Shown here in pieces: positions 5,300 to 17,525 of a stretch of 17,525 nucleotides of DNA. Positions within the stretch are counted from its first letter, which is position 1, and every line of letters starts with the position of its first letter. A program made the translations under genes and the position numbers. The notes under the pieces were generated by a model. The model was not told the origin of the DNA. It saw only the letters and a program-made list of their open reading frames with translations, and searched no databases. Source of the stretch: Nostoc sp. NMS4 (GTDB lineage Bacteria > Cyanobacteriota > Cyanobacteriia > Cyanobacteriales > Nostocaceae); contig NZ_JABXKI010000204.1 of NCBI RefSeq assembly GCF_017115095.1, positions 24,494 to 42,018 of the forward strand. Direction: 5' to 3'.

Positions 5300-5492
5300 A
5301 TACAAAACAAGTGTGATGCAACGGACAAAGGTATTAGTTTATCTGAATTAGTTAAAAATATCCAGATGTTACTATAAAAGTTTAGGTTAAAGAGGAATAA
5401 TTATAGCAACTAATTCTGAACAAGTTATAGATTAGTAATATTATTTACTATACAATACACAAATAAATTAGTTAAATTTGCTTACTATAAAT

Positions 5493-5984
5493 ATGCGCGA
5501 TCGCGTTTCTTTAGAGACTGTATCTGTAAGTCTGCCTTTTGGCATTGGTTCCATGTCTTGGAAAGTTGACACCACACAAAAGAAGGCGGCTTGGTCGCTT
5601 TATGTGGAATTGGTGACACGCATTGCTGTACAACCTTTGGAAGTTGACCAAGGTTTGGTACGAGAAGCGATGAACTCTCTTTATAGTTTATTTGGTACAA
5701 CCCGCGAAGTTCTCAAAGCCGCCGGGCCGGATGTGGGTGCTTCTCGTGATTCTGTGGGGGGAATTGCGATCGCTGTGTTAAATAATGGGTTAAGGCCATT
5801 TTTGGCTAAATGGCATCCCTTGTTGCAAGCATGGGAAGGTAGACGACCTGTGGGGGTGAGTCCCAAAGAACATGAGCAGAGTTGGTCGGAGGAACCCAAG
5901 TTGCGAAGTGAGTTGGAAGTTTTGCGCGGTGGGTTGGAAGATTACGCTAAGGCTTTGGCAAAAATTGCAGGCGTGGAGGAGTGA
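5493..5984 (+). CDS. Hypothetical soluble, probably alpha-helical protein (163 aa from the ATG; 168 aa from the TTG at 5478), co-operonic with the TIR-GUN4 gene
   Basis: Clean ORF with no TM segment and no catalytic motif I recognise (…KKAAWSLYVELVTRIAVQPL…LRPFLAKWHPLLQAW…). Its stop TGA (5982-5984) lies 3 nt before the next ATG, and the downstream gene's Shine-Dalgarno sequence is embedded in its last codons. Confidence 0.75.
   Translation: MRDRVSLETVSVSLPFGIGSMSWKVDTTQKKAAWSLYVELVTRIAVQPLEVDQGLVREAMNSLYSLFGTTREVLKAAGPDVGASRDSVGGIAIAVLNNGLRPFLAKWHPLLQAWEGRRPVGVSPKEHEQSWSEEPKLRSELEVLRGGLEDYAKALAKIAGVEE
5975..5981 (+). promoter_or_regulatory. Shine-Dalgarno sequence GGAGGAG for the TIR-GUN4 gene
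   Basis: GGAGGAG lies 6 nt upstream of the ATG at 5988, inside the 3' end of the upstream ORF. This arrangement indicates translational coupling. Confidence 0.6.
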
Positions 5985-5987
5985 TAA

Positions 5988-7193
5988 ATGCCAAAAGATG
6001 TTTTCCTTTGCCACAATAGCAAAGAAAAAGCACAGGTAGAAAAAATTAGAGCGCAGCTATTACAAGAAGGAATAGATGCTTGGTTAGATAAGTATGATTT
6101 TGAGCCATTTCGACGTTGGCAAGACCAACTTGAAGAAATTATTCCTCAAGTCAAAGCTGTAGCTGTATTTCTCGGTTCCTCTGGTGTAGGGCCGTGGGCA
6201 GATATCGAAATGAAAGAGTTTCTTGTTGAATTTGCGAAGAATCATAAGCTTCGCATAGGCTTAGTTATTCTTCCTGGATGCCCTGATAAACTTATAGATA
6301 CAGTTCCGAGATTCTTAAAAGGCTTTCATTGGGTAGATTTTCGGCTACAAAATCCCGATCCAATGGAACAGTTGATTTGGGGTATTACTGGACAAAAGCC
6401 AAAAACACAACCCATCACTTTATCTCAACTGCCTCAAAAACCTTCAGACAGAAGACAATTTTTGAAATGGGTAGGTTGGGGAAGTCTAGGCTTAGTAACA
6501 TCAGTCGTGGGTGCAGGGATTTTGAGTCAAGGAGGAAATCTGCCCGTTGTAACAAATAATAAACCTACAAACACTGAATCATCTCAGACTGCAATACCAG
6601 AAACAAAGCCTACTAGCAGCATCCCTCTAAGGGAGCAACGGGAAGAACGCAACTCACTTGAATCAGAGAGAGGCATTAACTATACCAAACTACGCGACTT
6701 ATTAGTAGCAAAAAACTGGAAGGAAGCCGACAAAGAAACCTATCGGGTGATGCTTCAGGCTGTAAAGTATGAATATGGCAACTATTTCACCTCAGAGGAA
6801 CTCTTTAAATTTCCTTGCACTGACTTACGCACAATTGACGGCTTATGGGTAAGATACAGCAATGGACACTTTGGCTTCAGCGTCCAGAAGGAAATTTACT
6901 TGAGCGTTGGCGGTAAAGCTGACGGCAAGGATTACGAAGAAGCCTGGAAAAAGTTTGGCGATCGCGTAGGATGGAGAGTGAATAGTAGTTGGATAAATTA
7001 CTCTGACGTAAATTATGATACAGCCTCGCCAAAAGGACACCTCCCTTACAGATTAGATCATCGGAGTGCAGAGGAGGTAGAAGATATACTAGGTACACAA
7101 AAGAAGCATGGAGGTTTAATACCAAACTCGGCGGTGGAAGTATTACCATTTTCTTCTCTCGCATCGAGACTTGTAAACTGTAACACGCCCTAA
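5988..7193 (+). CDS. TIR domain / Tat-like RRxFLK single-pass TM segment / GUN4 (porphyrin-binding) domain fusion protein
   Basis: 401 aa. Residues 3-135 form a TIR_2-like domain (DVFLCHNSKEK..., ...GPWADIEMKEF with candidate catalytic Glu74 at nt 6207-6209). Residues 154-180 read SDRRQFLKWVGWGSLGLVTSVVGAGIL. Residues ~229-335 carry GUN4 domain signatures (LLVAKNWKEADKET..., FPCTDLRTIDGLWVRYSNGHFGFSVQKEIY, WKKFGDRVGW). Confidence 0.88.
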   Translation: MPKDVFLCHNSKEKAQVEKIRAQLLQEGIDAWLDKYDFEPFRRWQDQLEEIIPQVKAVAVFLGSSGVGPWADIEMKEFLVEFAKNHKLRIGLVILPGCPDKLIDTVPRFLKGFHWVDFRLQNPDPMEQLIWGITGQKPKTQPITLSQLPQKPSDRRQFLKWVGWGSLGLVTSVVGAGILSQGGNLPVVTNNKPTNTESSQTAIPETKPTSSIPLREQREERNSLESERGINYTKLRDLLVAKNWKEADKETYRVMLQAVKYEYGNYFTSEELFKFPCTDLRTIDGLWVRYSNGHFGFSVQKEIYLSVGGKADGKDYEEAWKKFGDRVGWRVNSSWINYSDVNYDTASPKGHLPYRLDHRSAEEVEDILGTQKKHGGLIPNSAVEVLPFSSLASRLVNCNTP

Positions 7194-7513: not shown

Positions 7514-7525
7514 TTAATTGCATTT

Positions 7526-7780
7526 TTACCCCCCTTAATCCCCCCTTAGAAAGGGGGGAAACCAGAAAATCTAGTTCCCTCCCCTTTCCAAGGCTACGGT
7601 GTACACACAAGTCCTCTTACCCCCCTCAATCCCCCCGATGCATTGGGGGGAAGCCGGAAATCTAGTTCCCTCTCCTTTGCAAGGGGAGGGTTAGGGTGGG
7701 GTAATTCAACAGACTGATTGTGATTCGATAACTTGTGTATACACGGTAGCCTTTGCAAGGGGAGGGTTAGGGTGGGGTAA
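7526..7780. mobile_element. MITE-like nested-palindrome dispersed repeat, copy A
   Basis: 20-bp cores CTACGGTGTACACACAAGTC (7594-7613) and ACTTGTGTATACACGGTAG (7731-7749) form an inverted pair. They enclose G/C-run hairpins (TTACCCCCC..CCCCCC / GGGGGG.., CTAGTTCCCTC.CCTTTGCAAGGGGAGGGTTAGGGTGGGGTA). Outer arms of the same type flank the pair. Related copies lie at 10357-10743 and 13734-13959. Confidence 0.75.
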
Positions 7781-7782
7781 AG

Positions 7783-7923
7783 CGCTTCTATGACATTTTT
7801 CAGCGCCTTACTCAACATTTTCGGGTCGCCTTCTTCTAAAATAACTTCAATATAAGCTGCGGCTTCTAGTGGATTTTTTAAGTCTTGAATCAGTTTTTCA
7901 TGATAGCTTGTACTTTTAGGCAT
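7783..7923 (-). pseudogene. 3'-truncated HigA-type antitoxin (addiction-module antidote protein) remnant
   Basis: MPKSTSYHEKLIQDLKNPLEAAAYIEVILEEGDPKMLSKALKNVIEA matches the N-terminal third of HigA/antidote proteins. After that point the frame reads into repeat copy A (YPTLTLPLQ...), so the HTH domain is missing. The track ORF 7594..8037 is a chimera of this remnant and repeat sequence. Confidence 0.6.
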
Positions 7924-8068
7924 GATCTCTACTCCTGTAGTCTTCCCAATATTCCTTGGCTTTGGCAATATCCTTTTCTTGAGTGCTTTTATCACCACCA
8001 CACAAAAGAATAATAACTGTTGATCCTTGCTGTCCAACTTTGCGATCGCTGTAAATCAACAATATACA
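7916..8068 (-). pseudogene. 5'-truncated RelE/ParE-superfamily (HigB-type 'addiction module killer') toxin remnant
   Basis: Hand translation gives ...DRKVGQQGSTVIILLCGGDKSTQEKDIAKAKEYWEDYRSRDHA*. The LLCGGDKSTQ.KDI..A motif is the characteristic C-terminus of this toxin family. The stop overlaps the antitoxin ATG (ATGCCTAA), which is the normal toxin-first arrangement. Only 50 codons remain before an in-frame TAG at 8069-8071. Confidence 0.6.
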
Positions 8069-8109
8069 CTAGCGATGATTGCACTCACCAACAAACTTTA
8101 GTCATCAAT

Positions 8110-8277
8110 GTTACAACATTAACCCTTAAGGTTACAACATTAAGCCTTAAAGCTAGAACATTAAGCCTTAAAGTTACAACATTAACCCTTAAAGCTAGAA
8201 CATTAAGCCTTAAGATTACAACATTAAGCCTTAGAGCCAGAACATTAAGCCTTAAAGTTACAACATTAAGCCTTAAG
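8110..8277. repeat. Tandem array of eight 21-bp units (GTTACAACATTAAGCCTTAAA / GCTAGAACATTAAGCCTTAAA variants) plus a partial ninth
   Basis: Unit boundaries at 8110, 8131, 8152, 8173, 8194, 8215, 8236 and 8257 were verified by hand. Two unit types mostly alternate. HIP1 sites flank the array at 8042-8049 and 8284-8291. Confidence 0.95.
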
Positions 8278-8541
8278 ATTAAAGCGATCGCAGTTAACTA
8301 GAAGTAAAGGTGCGATGTCTACGACGGGCTATGCCTACGCTTATGCAACAATATTGTAGTTTTCGTGCAACTTAAACATAATATTATATTTTTCAAGAAA
8401 TCAACCCTTGGTGATTAAATACCGAAAAATTACGGACATAAGTAAAAAATTTTATTTAAAAGACTGCGCTTTTTGCTGAACCATAATATAGATTAATTGA
8501 GACAAAATAGCTCTGTAAAGCTTTAATATCTGGATAAATTT

Positions 8542-9137: not shown

Positions 9138-10058
9138 ATGACCCGTTTTATACATGATAAATTTGCCAAAGACTATCTAGAAGAATTACTAAAAGATTAC
9201 GGAGAAGTCAAGGCATCAGAAAAAGTATCAGGAGAGATTAAAGAAATAGATGTTTTATTCACTCCTGCTAAACAGCAAAACTCGAATTTACAAATACTGG
9301 GTTTACTAGGAAGATTTGCTGAACATCCTGCAATTATAGAACCATACCGCAATCCAGCTTCTACCGATGAAATCTGCGACTGTATTCTTAAATTATTAGA
9401 AATCAAGGCTTTATTGCGACGAGAAGCTAAGGCAAATAAAACCAAACTTCAGGATTCAGAAATTCCCAGATTGTGGGTTCTTACTCCAACCATATCTGAA
9501 ACTAGATTGTCTAGCTTTGGAACTATGCAAAAACCAGGTTGGTTATCAGGAGTCCATTTTCTACCAGATGCTTTGCGGACAGCAATTGTAGCGATACATC
9601 AACTACCCCAAACACCAGAAACTTTATGGTTGAGGCTTTTAGGTAGGGGAAGTGTGCAGTCACAAGCAATTATCGAGTTGCAAGCGTTACCATTAGATTA
9701 TCCATACCAAAAAGCAACTCTTGAATTAGTTTACAACTTGCGGGAAAACTTGAGAGTAAATCAAGAGTTAGAAGCAGATGATAGGGAGTTAATTATGCAA
9801 TTAGAACCACTTTATCAAAGAGACAGAGAACAAGCCAAAGAAGAAGGAAGGCAAGAAGGAAGGCAAGAGGGAAGGCAAGAAGGAAAACAAGGCTTAATAC
9901 TGCGTCTACTAAATCGCCGTATTGGTGAAATTGATGCATCATTAATCGAACGAATTCAAGGTTTATCGCTCGAAGAATTAGAGAATTTAGGAGAAGCATT
10001 ACTAGACTTTTCTAGTGTTGCTGATTTAGAAACTTGGTTAAACCAACAATCAATCTAA
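9138..10058 (+). CDS. Cyanobacterial multi-copy family protein: N-terminal Rpn/YhgA-like (putative PD-(D/E)XK nuclease / 'putative transposase') region plus a C-terminal DUF4351 domain
   Basis: 306 aa. The N-terminus MTRFIHDKFAKDYLEELL...EIKEIDVLFTP...AIIEPY and the C-terminus LILRLLNRRIGEIDASLIERIQGLSLEELENLGEALLDFSSVADLETWL match my recollection of this expanded cyanobacterial family. Domain names are from memory. Confidence 0.75.
   Translation: MTRFIHDKFAKDYLEELLKDYGEVKASEKVSGEIKEIDVLFTPAKQQNSNLQILGLLGRFAEHPAIIEPYRNPASTDEICDCILKLLEIKALLRREAKANKTKLQDSEIPRLWVLTPTISETRLSSFGTMQKPGWLSGVHFLPDALRTAIVAIHQLPQTPETLWLRLLGRGSVQSQAIIELQALPLDYPYQKATLELVYNLRENLRVNQELEADDRELIMQLEPLYQRDREQAKEEGRQEGRQEGRQEGKQGLILRLLNRRIGEIDASLIERIQGLSLEELENLGEALLDFSSVADLETWLNQQSI
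9843..9890 (+). repeat. Four tandem 12-bp units (GAAGGAAGGCAA) encoding the (E)GRQ-EGRQ-EGRQ-EGKQ linker
   Basis: Units lie at 9843-9854, 9855-9866, 9867-9878 (1 mismatch) and 9879-9890 (2 mismatches). They are in frame within the 9138..10058 gene. Confidence 0.9.
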
Positions 10059-10085
10059 TTCATTTCGATTGATAAAGAGTTAATT

Positions 10086-10325
10086 ATGCGACTAGAACCA
10101 CTTTATCAAAGAGACAGAGAACAAGCTATACAGGAAGGAAATAAACAACGAGAACAACGTCTAGTTATACGTCAACTCAATCGCCGTATTGGTGAGATTG
10201 ATACGTCATTAATCGAACGAATTCAAGGTTTATCGCTCGAAGAATTAGAGAATTTAGGAGAAGCATTGCTAGACTTTTCTAGTGTTGCTGATTTTGAAAT
10301 TTGGTTAAACCAACAATCAATCTAA
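10086..10325 (+). CDS. Stand-alone DUF4351 cassette (79 aa), a tandem duplicate of the 3' end of the preceding gene; may be a gene fragment
   Basis: MRLEPLYQRDREQA...RRIGEIDTSLIERIQGLSLEELENLGEALLDFSSVADFEIWLNQQSI is near-identical to residues ~219-306 of the upstream protein. Nucleotide identity extends into both flanks (GAGTTAATTATG... and ...TAATTCATT). Confidence 0.55.
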   Translation: MRLEPLYQRDREQAIQEGNKQREQRLVIRQLNRRIGEIDTSLIERIQGLSLEELENLGEALLDFSSVADFEIWLNQQSI

Positions 10326-10356
10326 TTCATTATTACTATAGCTGGGAAATCGAATT

Positions 10357-10743
10357 ATTACCCCCCTTTATAAGGTGGGAAACAAGAAAATCCGGTTCCC
10401 TCCCCTTTATAACTACCGTGTATACACAAGTCTGAAATACCTGATTAACCAGGGTTTTACCCCACCCTAACCCTCCCCTTGCAAAGGGGAGGGAACTAGA
10501 TTTTTTGGTTTCCCCCCAATGCAAGTAGTAATGCAACTCGCCAAGGCGAAAAACAAGGGAGGGAACTAGATTTTTCGGTTTCCCCCCAATGCAAGTAGTA
10601 ATGCAACTCGCCAAGGCGAAAAACAAGGGAGGGAACTAGATTTTCCGGTTTCCCCCCTTTGCATCGGGGGGATTAAGGGGGGTAATTCGACTTGTGTATA
10701 CACCGTAGCCCCTTTATAAGGGGAGGGTTAGGGTGGGGTAAAA
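10357..10743. mobile_element. MITE-like nested-palindrome dispersed repeat, copy B (core inverted relative to copy A, internally expanded)
   Basis: Inverted 20-bp cores CTACCGTGTATACACAAGTC (10413-10432) and GACTTGTGTATACACCGTAG (10689-10708). Outer arms are CCCTCCCCTTTATAA / TTATAAGGGGAGGG. The interior matches the reverse complement of copy A's interior. Confidence 0.75.
10491..10657. repeat. 70-bp tandem duplication inside repeat copy B (2 full units plus a 27-bp partial third)
   Basis: Units 10491-10560 and 10561-10630 differ at one position (T/C in GATTTTT[T/C]GG). Each unit consists of about 31 bp of element core (GGGAACTAGATTTTT.GGTTTCCCCCC...) plus a 39-bp segment AATGCAAGTAGTAATGCAACTCGCCAAGGCGAAAAACAA. 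Confidence 0.9.
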
Positions 10744-10974
10744 CAATATATGACACATCAATCATGACTTTCCAAACATCCTCTTAGTCCAAGTCGGTGG
10801 ACTAAGTTTTGTGTAGTAGCAAATTCTATTCGCCTCACACTTTTCAAACTTTCAGTATAAAAAAACTTTGCTAATAACCGATTACCAGTAAGGCTTTCAA
10901 TAATAAAAGTAAGCTAAACTTTTATAGCCAAGTATTGCCTAAAAATATTTCATAATTGAAGGGAGAAAATCCCA

Positions 10975-13733: not shown

Positions 13734-13959
13734 GATCCCCCCTAGCCCCCCTTAAAAAGCTACGGTGTACACATCTTGGTAATGAAGCCCCAATCCTGGA
13801 TTTACCCCCCTTAATCCCCCCTTGTAAAGGGGGGAAATATCCGGTTCTCCCCCTTGCCAAGGGGGAGTTAGAGGGGGTCAGAAAGACTTGTGTGTACACT
13901 GTAGCCCTTAAAAAGGGGGGAACTTCTAAAGCCCCCTTTTTAAGGGGGTTGGGGGATCT
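13734..13959. mobile_element. MITE-like nested-palindrome dispersed repeat, copy C
   Basis: The terminal inverted repeat is GATCCCCCCTAGCCCCCCTTAAAAAG... on the left and, read on the complement, GATCCCCCAACCCCCTTAAAAAG on the right. Inner cores are CTACGGTGTACACATC (13760-13775) and GACTTGTGTGTACACTGTAG (13885-13904). The central hairpins are TTACCCCCCTTAATCCCCCC..GGGGGGAAA. Confidence 0.75.
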
Positions 13960-14688: not shown

Positions 14689-15435
14689 ATGACACTATTA
14701 CAAGATAAAGTCGCAATTGTCACAGGTGCATCCAGAGGAATTGGCCGAGCGATCGCAATTGAATTAGCCTCACAAGGAGCGATCGCAATTGTCAATTATG
14801 CCAATTCTAATACTGCGGCTGAGGCAGTTGTTACAGAAATTATAGAAGCAGGAGGTCAGGCGATCGCTATTCAAGCTGATGTTTCTAAAATTGAGCAAGT
14901 AGACGCACTAGTTAACGCCGTCATGGAAAAGTTCAGCCGCGTAGATATTTTGGTCAACAACGCAGGTATTACCCGCGACACCTTACTTTTGCGTTTGAAA
15001 CCAGAAGATTGGCAAGCAGTGATAGACCTTAATCTAACCGGTGTTTTCTTATGTACACGCGCCGCCAGTAAAATCATGCTGAAGCAGCGATCGGGGCGGA
15101 TTATCAACATTACCTCAGTTGCCGCACAAATGGGCAACCCAGGTCAGTCGAACTACAGTGCCGCTAAAGCAGGTGTAATCGGCTTTACGAAAAGCGTTGC
15201 CAAGGAACTCGCTACTCGTGGCATCACCGTTAACGCCGTCGCCCCTGGCTTCATCACCACCGACATGACCAGTAATCTCAACAATCCCGAAGATATTCTC
15301 AAATACATCCCACTCGGTCGCTTCGGTCAACCAGAAGAAGTCGCCGGGATGGTGCGCTTCCTAGCTGCCGATCCCGCCGCAGCCTACATCACCGGACAAG
15401 TATTTAATGTTGATGGCGGTATGGTCATGGCGTAA
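14689..15435 (+). CDS. fabG: 3-oxoacyl-[acyl-carrier-protein] reductase (SDR family)
   Basis: 248 aa with TGASRGIGRAIA (cofactor-binding motif), NNAGITRD and the catalytic S...YSAAKAG, then GITVNAVAPGFITTDMT and the C-terminal GQVFNVDGGMVM. A GAGGAA RBS lies upstream. Confidence 0.93.
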   Translation: MTLLQDKVAIVTGASRGIGRAIAIELASQGAIAIVNYANSNTAAEAVVTEIIEAGGQAIAIQADVSKIEQVDALVNAVMEKFSRVDILVNNAGITRDTLLLRLKPEDWQAVIDLNLTGVFLCTRAASKIMLKQRSGRIINITSVAAQMGNPGQSNYSAAKAGVIGFTKSVAKELATRGITVNAVAPGFITTDMTSNLNNPEDILKYIPLGRFGQPEEVAGMVRFLAADPAAAYITGQVFNVDGGMVMA

Positions 15436-15776
15436 ATACTGCCAAAGTTAAGGGACTTCCAAATAAAAAAATATCTGAGATTAGCAAATGTCCCTGGACT
15501 TAATAGTTCAATCAACCGTGATTCTATCTGTTGGTTTGTTGGGGCTGGGCAAGTTACCCGATGTCGAAAGTCTGGATTTCCTTGTTTTTTGCGTGGCTTA
15601 CTTATGGCTCAAATCAACACCCTTGTGTTGAGTTTATCCATTCAGTTTTACCCTGTTGACAAGATTCTATTTTTCTTAACTTGACACTAATGGCTTTTCG
15701 ACCCACCCCACAATATTGGATAATTTATTTGTTGGAAGTCCCTCAGTGAAGATGTCGCCAGATAAGGTAGGATATT

Positions 15777-16193
15777 TTGGAACCAATCACAGCTAGTGCG
15801 ATCGCAACTCTCGCTTTTACTAAAGCATTTGAGAAAACCATCGAGAAATTTACTGAAGCAGCCCTTGGTAAAATGGACGAGCTGCGGAAAAAGATTTGGG
15901 GTAAGTTACGGGGAAATCTGAAAGCAGAAACAGCCCTCGTCGCTGCTGAAAAAGGCTCTAAACCAGATTTAGATAGGGTTGCTGCTTACTTGCAGATAAT
16001 TTTACATGAAGAACCAGAGTTTGCGAAAGAAGTAGAAACGCTGGCTCGTGAAATTGAGGCTGGTAAGATAGTAGACAAAAGCACTATGACCCAAATCAAT
16101 CAAGACAATGCCAGGGGATGGCAAACTAAGGTTGAGGGTGGAACAGTTTATCAAGGCGATATTAGCATTCATCATGCACCGCCCAATTCTTAA
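15777..16193 (+). CDS. Small helical protein (138 aa) with a hydrophobic N-terminal helix and a C-terminal G/N/Q-rich motif shared with the downstream NLR; candidate Bell-like cell-death effector
   Basis: The start is a TTG (the frame opens after a TAA at 15762, and no ATG occurs before residue 33). AGGTAGGA lies about 6 nt upstream. The N-terminus is MEPITASAIATLAFTKAFEKTIEKF. The C-terminus NQDNARGWQTKVEGGTVYQGDISI (nt 16098-16169) is repeated at 16217-16288. Confidence 0.7.
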   Translation: MEPITASAIATLAFTKAFEKTIEKFTEAALGKMDELRKKIWGKLRGNLKAETALVAAEKGSKPDLDRVAAYLQIILHEEPEFAKEVETLAREIEAGKIVDKSTMTQINQDNARGWQTKVEGGTVYQGDISIHHAPPNS

Positions 16194-16204
16194 ATTGAGC
16201 CATC

Positions 16205-17525
16205 ATGAACCAAAGCAACCAGGATAATGCCAAGGGATGGGAAAATAAGGTTGAGGGTGGAATAGTTTATCAAGGCGATATTAGTATCTACAATTCTCCT
16301 ACTCAGCAGTTACAGTCAACTTCTCCAAACAATATTCCTTATCGGGGTGTCGCCAACTTTGTCGGGCGGGATGAGAAACTTGCCCAAGTGCATAAAAAGT
16401 TGCTGCAAAATGACAACGCAGCAATTTTGGCTTTGGCTGGTATGGGGGGAATGGGTAAAACTGAACTGGCGACACAATACGCACAGCGCTACAAAGACAA
16501 TTATCCTGGTGGGCTTTGCTGGTTAGATGCCAGAAAACCAGATTTAGCAGCAGAGATTGTGGAATTTGCTCGGTTTTACATGAAACTGGAAGTACCGCAA
16601 ACTTTATTGACTTCCCAGGAACAAGCAAAATGGTGCTGGCGTAATTGGCAACCACAAACAGGACTAGTCTTGGTAGTATTGGACAATGTTGATGATGTGA
16701 CTAACTGGGAAAAATCTCGCCAAGTACTACCAACAGATAACCGCTTCTGTATATTGATGACAACTCGGTTGCGAAATCTCGGTTCAACAGTTCAACAGAT
16801 AAATTTAGATGAACTGTCACCAAACGATGCTTTAAAGTTGTTGACAGCTTTGTTGGGTGAAAATGATCGGCGGGTGCAACGGGAACCACAAACGGCAGCA
16901 AATTTATGTAAATGGCTGGGATATCTGCCTTTAGGTTTGCAATTAGTCGGCGCGTATTTGGCAGAAGATCCAAATTTGTCTTTAACAGAGATTTTACAGC
17001 GATTACCAGACCAGCAAAAATCTCAATTGGAAGCTGTATTTGAATTAAGCTGGCAACAACTCGATTCTATGACACAGTATGTCGGTGAGTTGTTGAGTTT
17101 ATTTGCCCCAGATATCATTCCTTGGCAAATAGTTGAATCTGTCAGTCAGCAGCTAAATTGGGCGAAGGCAGATGTTGACAAGGCGAGAAAGCAACTTTAT
17201 CAACGCCATTTAATTCAAAGCGTAGCAGAAGGAGAAAGTTGCTATAAAATTCATCCTTTAATTAGGGAGTTTTTGCAAGGGAAATTGGTAAGGTTAAACA
17301 CAGCCGATGACCTCAAAAAAGCCTTTGCCGCAGTATTAGTAGAAATTGCTCAGAAAATACCTGAATCTCTCACCCTTGAGGATATCAAGTTAGTGCAACT
17401 GGCAATTCCCCATTTAACTGAGGTGGCACAAAATCTGATTGATGTTGTGGAGGATGAAAATTTAACCTTGATTTTCACTGGCTTGGGCAAATTTTATCAA
17501 GGACAGGGTTTGTATACCCTAGCAG
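16205..17525 (+). CDS. NB-ARC (STAND) ATPase with an N-terminal amyloid-like signalling motif and the onset of C-terminal TPRs; 3' end outside the window (partial, absent from the ORF track)
   Basis: Hand translation gives 440 stop-free codons from the ATG at 16205: MNQSNQDNAKGWENKVEGGIVYQGDISIY..., FVGRDEKL, Walker A GMGGMGKT (16439-16462), Walker B LVLVVLDNVDD, ILMTTR, GYLPLGLQLVGAYL (GLPL motif), KIHPLIREF (MHD-like), then ...GLGKFYQGQGLYTLA (TPR start). I checked the frame at two coordinates (16934 and 17480). Confidence 0.9.
   Translation, partial: MNQSNQDNAKGWENKVEGGIVYQGDISIYNSPTQQLQSTSPNNIPYRGVANFVGRDEKLAQVHKKLLQNDNAAILALAGMGGMGKTELATQYAQRYKDNYPGGLCWLDARKPDLAAEIVEFARFYMKLEVPQTLLTSQEQAKWCWRNWQPQTGLVLVVLDNVDDVTNWEKSRQVLPTDNRFCILMTTRLRNLGSTVQQINLDELSPNDALKLLTALLGENDRRVQREPQTAANLCKWLGYLPLGLQLVGAYLAEDPNLSLTEILQRLPDQQKSQLEAVFELSWQQLDSMTQYVGELLSLFAPDIIPWQIVESVSQQLNWAKADVDKARKQLYQRHLIQSVAEGESCYKIHPLIREFLQGKLVRLNTADDLKKAFAAVLVEIAQKIPESLTLEDIKLVQLAIPHLTEVAQNLIDVVEDENLTLIFTGLGKFYQGQGLYTLA

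Follow-up and report, generated by a model that had tools for sequence, protein, structure and literature searches.

Amyloid signaling couples an NLR sensor to a cell-death effector through a short motif that both proteins carry, and the model accepted for this class, in which oligomerization of the NLR results in the effector's conversion to amyloid, has been shown for fungal HET-S/NWD2 and for Bab/Agp of Escherichia coli (bioRxiv 10.1101/2024.11.07.622273). In the latter, phage infection brings about amyloid-triggered cell death, i.e., amyloid-dependent abortive infection, and Bab relocalizes to the cell periphery (bioRxiv 10.1101/2024.11.07.622273). The Bell domain and ten families of BASS motifs were defined by Dyrka et al. 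2020 (bioRxiv 10.1101/2020.01.06.895854), who described Bell as a five-helix bundle of ~100 residues whose first helix is hydrophobic and whose second or third residue is acidic, found in proteins of 120-140 amino acids, and BASS motifs as typically ~25 residues long. One of these families, BASS9, was reported there to be specific to cyanobacteria and was catalogued in Microcystis, Pseudanabaena, Leptolyngbya, Chamaesiphon, and Calothrix. Here we describe a pair of adjacent genes, a Bell-domain effector and an NLR, which share a BASS9 motif and lie in a stretch of 17,525 nucleotides (nt) from Nostoc sp. NMS4 (contig NZ_JABXKI010000204.1, assembly GCF_017115095.1, positions 24,494-42,018 of the forward strand). 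This whole stretch is hereafter called the window.

For BASS1 and BASS3, the NLR-side motif converts the Bell-side motif in Podospora, and fibrils were formed in vitro. The BASS3 pair, which was tested in Podospora and in vitro for prion behavior, cross-seeding, and the formation of fibrils, comes from Nostoc punctiforme, which contradicts the statement, made in an earlier note written from the letters of this DNA, that no cyanobacterial pair had been tested functionally. We consider it about 70% probable that the pair in the window is a two-gene BASS9 amyloid-signaling module of a Nostoc-type cyanobacterium, in which a Bell executioner and an NLR sensor bring about amyloid-templated cell death. 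This reading builds on the gene structure, the identity of the motif, the family membership, the conservation, and the co-variation of the motif copies, which are presented below.

The effector gene and the NLR gene

The effector gene occupies positions 15777..16193 (+) and, according to the listing of open reading frames (ORFs) and its translation, encodes 138 amino acids between a TTG start codon (translated as Met), which is kept in the orthologues, and a TAA stop codon at 16191-16193. The protein begins with MEPITASAIATLAFTKAFE and its C-terminal end reads MTQINQDNARGWQTKVEGGTVYQGDISIHHAPPNS. Residues 1-103 (15777..16085, +) form the Bell domain, whose second residue is Glu (MEPITASAIATLAF) and in which AlphaFold2 places a hydrophobic N-terminal helix ahead of a helical bundle. 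Specifically, helices were predicted at residues 6-13/15-18, 27-44, 48-58, 62-78, and 80-95, with a predicted local distance difference test score (pLDDT) of 75-90 over residues 1-100 in a model built with 45 homologous sequences. The tail (residues 100-135) had a pLDDT <50 and no fixed fold was predicted for it in the monomer; its content of G, N, and Q is 36%, versus 7% in the remainder of the protein. The description of this product in the earlier note, a 138-residue helical protein with a hydrophobic N-terminal helix and no enzymatic motif, agrees with the predicted fold and with the absence of Pfam and NCBIfam matches.

Homologues of the effector numbered 271 in a collection of 5.8 billion proteins, all of them cyanobacterial where the source names the organism and nearly all 130-150 amino acids long. 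Among the Bell-side proteins of Table S2 of Dyrka et al. 2020, the effector is 75% identical over its full length to BAZ41012.1 (P0005, Calothrix NIES-4101) and 70% identical, also over its full length, to AFZ02241.1 (P0006, Calothrix PCC 6303). By this transitive homology and the matching predicted fold the small protein is a member of the Bell family, transitive homology being the ground of the assignment because no Pfam or NCBIfam model matched.

The stop codon is followed by an 11-nt spacer (ATTGAGCCATC; 16194..16204, +), identical in loci L001-L005, and by the NLR gene, which is read in another frame than the effector. The NLR gene starts with an ATG at 16205, begins MNQSNQDNAKGWENKVEGGIVYQGDISI, and remains open for 440 codons up to the end of the window (16205..17525, +), as the earlier note had stated for an NLR lying 11 nt downstream and running off the window. 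This 5' part, 440 of ~1087 codons, covers the motif, a linker, and the nucleotide-binding domain (Pfam NB-ARC and DUF7779). The NB-ARC domain spans NLR residues 56-273 (16370..17023, +; PF00931, E = 1.1e-20), with the P-loop GMGGMGKT at residues 79-86 (16439-16462), and the frame gave partial matches to the NCBIfam NB-ARC/TPR models. No TPR was found within the part of the NLR contained in the window; an orthologue 92% identical to it (L004) has 1087 amino acids and consists of NB-ARC and 14 TPR_12 units. Hence the NB-ARC half of the NB-ARC/TPR architecture proposed earlier can be read in the window and the TPR half lies outside it, seen only in orthologues, and the protein is classified by sequence as an NLR-like STAND NTPase with NB-ARC and, from the orthologue L004, TPR.

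The two genes are probably co-transcribed. In the Nostoc-clade loci the gap to the open frame is again 5 nt, and the AIM-MNQS junction recurs. A scan of positions 15300-16400 for promoters and terminators returned counts no higher than those of shuffled sequences, and therefore no promoter was assigned.

The shared motif and its identity as BASS9

Both motif copies lie on the same strand, one in the C-terminal part of the effector and the other at the N-terminus of the NLR. The effector-side copy comprises residues 104-131 of 138 (MTQINQDNARGWQTKVEGGTVYQGDISI; 16086..16169, +) and is one arm of a direct repeat, whereas the NLR-side copy comprises residues 1-28 (16205..16288, +). They are identical at 23 of 28 amino acids (20/24 in the core), and at the DNA level they form a direct repeat of 83 nt (16086-16168 / 16205-16287) that is 88% identical and contains a 41-nt stretch with a single difference. 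Alignment of the effector tail with the NLR N-terminus gave a Smith-Waterman score of 132, compared to a mean of 22.3 (standard deviation 4.8, maximum 57) for 2000 shuffles. The likeness reported in the earlier note is confirmed; its placement of the motif at the effector C-terminus applies to the tail but not to the very end, as seven more residues follow the motif.

To identify the motif, a profile hidden Markov model was made from 16 published BASS9 sequences and run on the six-frame translation of the window. It matched two sites only, the effector copy with 52.8 bits and the NLR copy with 28.4 bits, and the next best match scored 3.3 bits. Table S2 of Dyrka et al. 2020 (bioRxiv 10.1101/2020.01.06.895854) lists the BASS9 sub-motif nlr_20 as MTQINQDNAKGWQTKVDGGTAYI in Calothrix PCC 6303 (AFZ02241.1, residues 104-126) and as MTQINQDNARGWQTKVDGGTAYI in Calothrix NIES-4101 (BAZ41012.1), and P0006 and P0005 carry these strings exactly at residues 104-126. 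The sequence of the window fits the nlr_20 pattern ...N.DNA[KR]G[WFY]QT.V.GGTAYI. On these sequence grounds the shared motif is BASS9, sub-motif nlr_20, and no new variant, as had been entertained when it was left unplaced among the numbered families. The profile matches at both sites and the 70-75% identity to published Bell proteins uphold the architecture first suggested for the locus, that of a Bell protein with a BASS motif next to an NLR, in the manner of HET-S/NWD2. The gene pair belongs to a family catalogued in 2020 and is therefore already of a known class.

Conservation and co-variation of the motif copies

The pair is present in ~20 Nostoc genomes and metagenome-assembled genomes, several of which are lichen cyanobionts, at 91-94% nucleotide identity. 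The TTG start, the 11-nt spacer, and the positions of both motifs are common to them. Effector and NLR copies were compared in 31 distinct pairs from many genera, in which the identity of the two copies spans 8 to 22 of 24 positions.

These 31 pairs were used to compare the match of each motif to its own partner with its match to permuted partners over the 24 motif positions (5000 permutations). Own partners matched at 16.1 of 24 positions and permuted partners at 14.4 +/- 0.29, and none of the 5000 permutations reached the observed value, to which, through linkage, shared phylogeny contributes. At two loci (L035 and L036), the effector and NLR copies deviate alike from the consensus. Among Nostoc strains, variants VYQ and AYV are swapped between the effector and the NLR sides. 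This exchange between sides, together with the 88% DNA identity, suggests occasional gene conversion between the two copies.

Proposed mechanism and alternative explanations

By analogy with HET-S/NWD2 and Bab/Agp, from which the steps between sensing and membrane attack are drawn, the first gene would encode the executioner, a helical Bell domain of ~100 residues that would attack the membrane with its N-terminal hydrophobic helix. Its BASS9 tail, unstructured in the monomer, would keep the effector inactive. The second gene would encode the sensor, an NB-ARC/TPR STAND NTPase with a near-identical N-terminal BASS9 copy. The TPR array would recognize the trigger, most likely a component of a phage or of another invader, after which the NB-ARC domain would oligomerize and the clustered N-terminal BASS9 segments of the NLR would fold into a cross-beta nucleus. 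This nucleus would template the BASS9 tails of the free effector, and conversion would free the Bell domain, so that the membrane would be permeabilized and the cell killed. The outcome would be abortive infection, or the sacrifice of a cell within the filament.

Several observations weigh against this mechanism. The literature searched contained no experiment on BASS9, nor on such a pair inside a cyanobacterium, and the immediate neighbors of the pair are housekeeping genes (fabG, thioredoxin, and aconitase B) with no obvious defense island. The Bell domain had no match in Pfam, NCBIfam, or PADLOC, and Pfam searches of 45 family members returned noise only. The AlphaFold model had no match at E <=0.001 in the Protein Data Bank (PDB) by Foldseek (best E = 2.1), and the CC-R domain of NRG1.1 was matched with E = 5.2 and a template modeling (TM) score of 0.17-0.20, small helical bundles being hard targets for such searches. 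Kinship with HeLo, MLKL, RPW8, or Bab is therefore without independent support here. Within the Nostoc clade alone, own-partner matching was not significantly above that of permuted partners (P = 0.07), and the high nucleotide identity of the copies could stem partly from gene conversion and not from selection on each copy. Searching PDB sequences with a profile likewise gave no relevant relative, and there is no PADLOC model for the effector/NLR pair. A PF20701 flag in precomputed data for two effector homologues was discarded, as hmmscan did not reproduce it.

Three other explanations of the pair were weighed against amyloid templating. The motif might be a homotypic adaptor, the two copies binding one to one (e.g., by beta-strand pairing) and the NLR activating only the effector bound to it. 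No fibril formation by BASS9 has been reported in the literature searched, recognition of BASS9 by grammars or profiles was the weakest of the ten families (average precision 0.42-0.63; Dyrka et al. 2020), and AlphaFold gives no structure for the effector tail, all of which would sit well with such an adaptor. We nevertheless find it unlikely: every BASS motif tested so far (BASS1, BASS3, and BASS11) formed fibrils and propagated as a prion, the G/N/Q enrichment and the ~25-residue length of the motif in the window are typical of the class, and a relative in which effector and NLR are one chain (P0263, described below) retains the motif. It is also improbable, in our view, that the small protein is a regulator, inhibitor, or chaperone of an NLR with some other output. 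Its want of a match to any enzymatic or pore-forming family (Pfam, NCBIfam, PADLOC) and of a significant structural match to HeLo, MLKL, or RPW8 (Foldseek versus PDB) speak for such a role, but the NLR, made up of motif, linker, NB-ARC, and TPR, lacks an effector domain, and the small protein bears the hallmarks of Bell, i.e., the hydrophobic N-terminal helix, the acidic residue at position 2 or 3, and the helical bundle. Moreover, among the relatives the effector slot is held by an alpha/beta-hydrolase-like protein in L093, and Bell-BASS9 is joined to segments that resemble CHAT and TIR, classic effector and immune domains, in P0232 and P0260 (recognized by eye).

A recent local duplication or gene conversion without function could account for 88% DNA identity and for a 41-nt stretch with one difference, both above the expectation for long-separated segments, as well as for the exchange of VYQ and AYV variants between sides. 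This explanation, to which we give next to no credence, is already refuted because the motif pair is broadly conserved: it is seen again in 31 distinct pairs, drawn from many genera and showing identities of 8-22/24, and was catalogued in five genera, and gene conversion explains why the copies stay matched but not why there are two of them. Amyloid-templated killing through the Bell effector is the reading that we favor for the pair.

Three gene arrangements among the relatives

A total of 79 genome loci encoding relatives of the effector were surveyed. The arrangement of the window, in which the NLR has its own copy of the motif (Type B), was found at 31 loci; the second copy scored 76-142 in the 13 loci tested, and the first-pass scores of all 31 were 54-142. 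At least 33 of the 79 loci, from many genera and with several different BASS tails joined to NB-ARC proteins or to STAND NTPases of other kinds, have a single motif copy (Type A), and no second copy was detected there within +/-5 kb (scores 24-47). About a dozen metagenome contigs likewise carry only one BASS copy. The third arrangement is a true fusion, P0263 (L102:1501-4374), a Bell-BASS9-NB-ARC-TPR protein of 957 amino acids whose DNA translates without interruption.

At Type A loci the effector ends with TGA in 24 of 28 distinct junctions and with TAG in the other four, and the next base is C in 27 of the 28. The NTPase continues directly in the frame of the effector (L-Q-S/P-x-E-R-x-K-L-N-P-P...FVGR), with the P-loop ~51 codons after the stop. 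Downstream of the stop, the first potential start codon (ATG, GTG, or TTG) comes at most of these loci no earlier than codon 25-44, at the NTPase domain or within it; earlier ones occur at a few loci, such as the GTG directly after the stop in L062. Fusion, stop with pseudoknot (see below), and two genes with two copies all place the BASS motif directly N-terminal to the NTPase, and these three arrangements provide independent genomic support for the amyloid-templating model.

The surroundings of the fusion gene in L102, which include PNP_UDP-TIR and TIR genes and another pair (a 150-amino-acid ORF and an NB-ARC gene, 7 nt apart), look like a defense island. In L093, a 301-amino-acid alpha/beta-hydrolase-like protein with an HSMGG motif is encoded upstream of the stop-pseudoknot element, and the fusions of the Bell-BASS9 module to CHAT-like and TIR-like segments in P0232 and P0260 were noted from sequence signatures. 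Effector and sensor modules are shuffled freely. P0312 (L101:488-1648), which looked like a naturally occurring variant that reads Trp instead of the stop, was rejected as evidence: its DNA has TGA, and the W was introduced by a gene caller using an alternative code. Entries of this kind could pass for natural sense-codon variants.

A stop-pseudoknot element at single-motif loci

Alignment of the Type A junctions revealed a 5-bp stem (GYCCG / CGGRC) 8 nt after the stop codon, whose loop contains a GGG that pairs with a CCC ten nt downstream to give an H-type pseudoknot; at other loci the loop and its downstream partner are CCGG/CCGG, CGGC/GCCG, AGG/CCT, or CGG/CCG. Examples are found at L041:5415-5465, L045:5430-5480, L064:5427-5477, L079:5424-5474, and L101:917-965. 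Among 27 sequences, pairing was observed in 88% of the cells, versus <=57% when the partner was slid by 1-3 columns, and the covariation score was 0.31 versus 0.17 for shuffles, none of 500 reaching 0.31. Compensatory changes are seen in both stems: pair 19-34 shows UA (12 sequences) and CG (11), pair 21-32 shows CG, GC, UA, or UG, and pair 26-48 shows GC (20 sequences), CG (five), and AU (one). The first stem was recovered independently by RNAalifold. Folding of single junction sequences was not exceptional (z-scores -0.9 to +0.6), and the support for the element comes from covariation because thermodynamics alone does not single it out.

Divergence at third codon positions was 0.105 in the 13 codons over the element versus 0.45-0.48 in the next 67 codons. 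The latter show a pattern of 0.27/0.20/0.45 across the three codon positions and are therefore translated in that frame. A scan of metagenomes with the pattern of the element but not the stop retrieved 16 contigs, all of which (16/16) have TGA immediately 5' of it. In one of these contigs (L094) the frame meets another stop a single codon past the TGA, and this copy may be degenerate. The element matched no Rfam family and no description of it was found in the literature searched; it is apparently undescribed.

Programmed read-through of the stop codon is, we infer from these sequence features, the most economical reading of the Type A junction. It would yield abundant free effector and a little effector-BASS-NLR fusion from a single frame, and the motif embedded in the fusion would seed the free effector. 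Non-canonical re-initiation is unlikely at the codon after the stop, which is CUA in nine and CUC in three of the 24 loci listed (one of them not Type A). Judging from codon-anticodon pairing, CUA cannot pair adequately with the initiator tRNA. A purely regulatory RNA structure is another alternative. We know of no pseudoknot-stimulated read-through described in bacteria.

The junction in the window is without the element and retains a trace of its spacer. After the motif copy, its NLR reads YNSPTQQ-LQS-TSPNNIPYRGVANFVGR, and Type A proteins read [stop]-LQS-PERERAKLNPPNNIPYRGVGNFVGR. The nonamer TTACAGTCA (16310..16318, +), which encodes Leu-Gln-Ser at NLR residues 36-38, aligns with the Type A spacer CTACAGTCG and is, by sequence comparison, what is left of the CTRCAGTCG spacer found behind the in-frame stop of single-motif relatives. 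DNA homology between the NLR of the window and single-motif NLRs starts at 16311-16333. Between the spacer and a shared CCAAAC there are ~30 nt in L044 versus 8 nt in the window, the segment coding for the pseudoknot being absent, and no pseudoknot-like match was found in the window with up to 3 mismatches. The pair in the window thus looks like a Type A-like frame that had its motif segment duplicated, gained a start codon, and lost its recoding signal, or else events ran in the opposite order. We see about even chances that the Type A relatives use programmed read-through and that the NLR-side BASS copy of the window, with its remnant spacer, is an evolutionary replacement for it.

Genomic setting and other features of the window

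Upstream of the effector lie fabG (14689-15435) and the genes for thioredoxin and aconitase B. Homology to all other Nostoc loci begins abruptly at 15739-15743, ~35 nt ahead of the TTG, and the fabG side is found at none of those loci; therefore, the cassette sits in a different neighborhood in this genome. The intergenic region between fabG and the effector is filled by an element of ~293 bp (15451-15743) with 32-nt inverted repeats at its ends (AGGGACTTCCAA... / ...TTGGAAGTCCCT). Its right end is the exact start of the homology to the other Nostoc Bell/NLR loci, and it looks like a miniature inverted-repeat transposable element (MITE) at the synteny break.

Elsewhere in the window, a gene at 5988-7193 (+), with an ORF at 5478-5984 just upstream, encodes a protein with an N-terminal TIR_2 and a C-terminal GUN4-like domain, and the GUN4 portion is hit by the PADLOC model for the antiphage protein PD-T4-6 (E = 6e-46). 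The C-terminal segments of the Bell-BASS effector relatives P0241, P0299, and P0363 are GUN4-like by eye, and GUN4-like domains may therefore serve a sensor role in the immune proteins of cyanobacteria. At 8073-8303 a 21-nt unit (AACATTAAGCCTTAAAGTTAC) is repeated in tandem about ten times, overlapping a small ORF (8020-8301). G-rich palindromic interspersed repeats (e.g., CCTTTGCAAGGGGAGGGTTAGGGTGGGGTAA) occur in both orientations at 7525-7790, 10347-10750, 13747-13920, and 2662-2687, and also in Nostoc loci L003 and L004. The gene for a 306-amino-acid DUF4351 protein (9138-10058) has its 3' part duplicated just downstream (9779-10064 versus 10070-10331, 84-87% identical).

Comparison with known systems

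With the window, BASS9, a family known from bioinformatics only, gains a well-preserved Nostoc example, whose unusually similar motif copies would make it a clean substrate for a first biochemical test of the family. If it is programmed read-through, the form with stop and pseudoknot would be a rare case of bacterial recoding, and read-through would be a neat means both to set the stoichiometry of sensor to effector and to guarantee the identity of the motif. The pair in the window, with two genes and two motifs, would then be one answer to a design problem for which many relatives use translational recoding.

A known counterpart of the Type A junction is gag-pol of gammaretroviral murine leukemia virus (MuLV), where a leaky stop is followed by an 8-nt spacer and a compact H-type pseudoknot and the read-through product, made in small amounts, has the same N-terminus and an extended C-terminus. 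Read-through in MuLV is eukaryotic/viral, with UAG decoded on 80S ribosomes. In contrast, the single-motif relatives of the window, known from sequence, are bacterial, their stop is mostly UGA-C, and their pseudoknot is much smaller (5 + 3-4 bp).

For the pair itself, HET-S/NWD2 of Podospora anserina offers a parallel in architecture: the genes are adjacent, an amyloid motif of ~25 residues is found at the C-terminus of the effector and at the N-terminus of the NLR, and the helical domain of HET-S targets the membrane and has a hydrophobic helix at its N-terminus, as predicted for the effector of the window. However, the two systems have no sequence or detectable structural homology, NWD2 is a NACHT/WD NLR whereas the NLR of the window is NB-ARC/TPR, HET-S carries two pseudo-repeats of the motif against a single copy in the window effector, and the role of HET-S/NWD2 is heterokaryon incompatibility. 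Bab/Agp of E. coli ECOR25 (Ibarlosa et al. 2024) likewise combines a small Bell-related effector that has a C-terminal amyloid motif with an adjacent sensor that has the same motif at its N-terminus; it differs in its motif (BASS11 versus BASS9) and in the length of Bab (109 amino acids), which was compared by its description.

The closest systems are the BASS9 pairs of Calothrix, AFZ02241.1/AFZ02242.1 (PCC 6303) and BAZ41012.1/BAZ41011.1 (NIES-4101). Their effectors belong to the same family as that of the window (70-75% identity over 138 amino acids), the motif is found at the same residues (104-126), and each is followed by an adjacent collinear NB-ARC NLR with an N-terminal motif, as in the window. 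The exact Nostoc pair of the window is not listed in the 2020 table of Dyrka et al., and it differs in how alike its copies are, 20/24 in the core and 23/28 overall versus 8-14/24 in Calothrix and other genera, with a likeness that extends 5 residues beyond the published 23-residue motif (YQGDISI).

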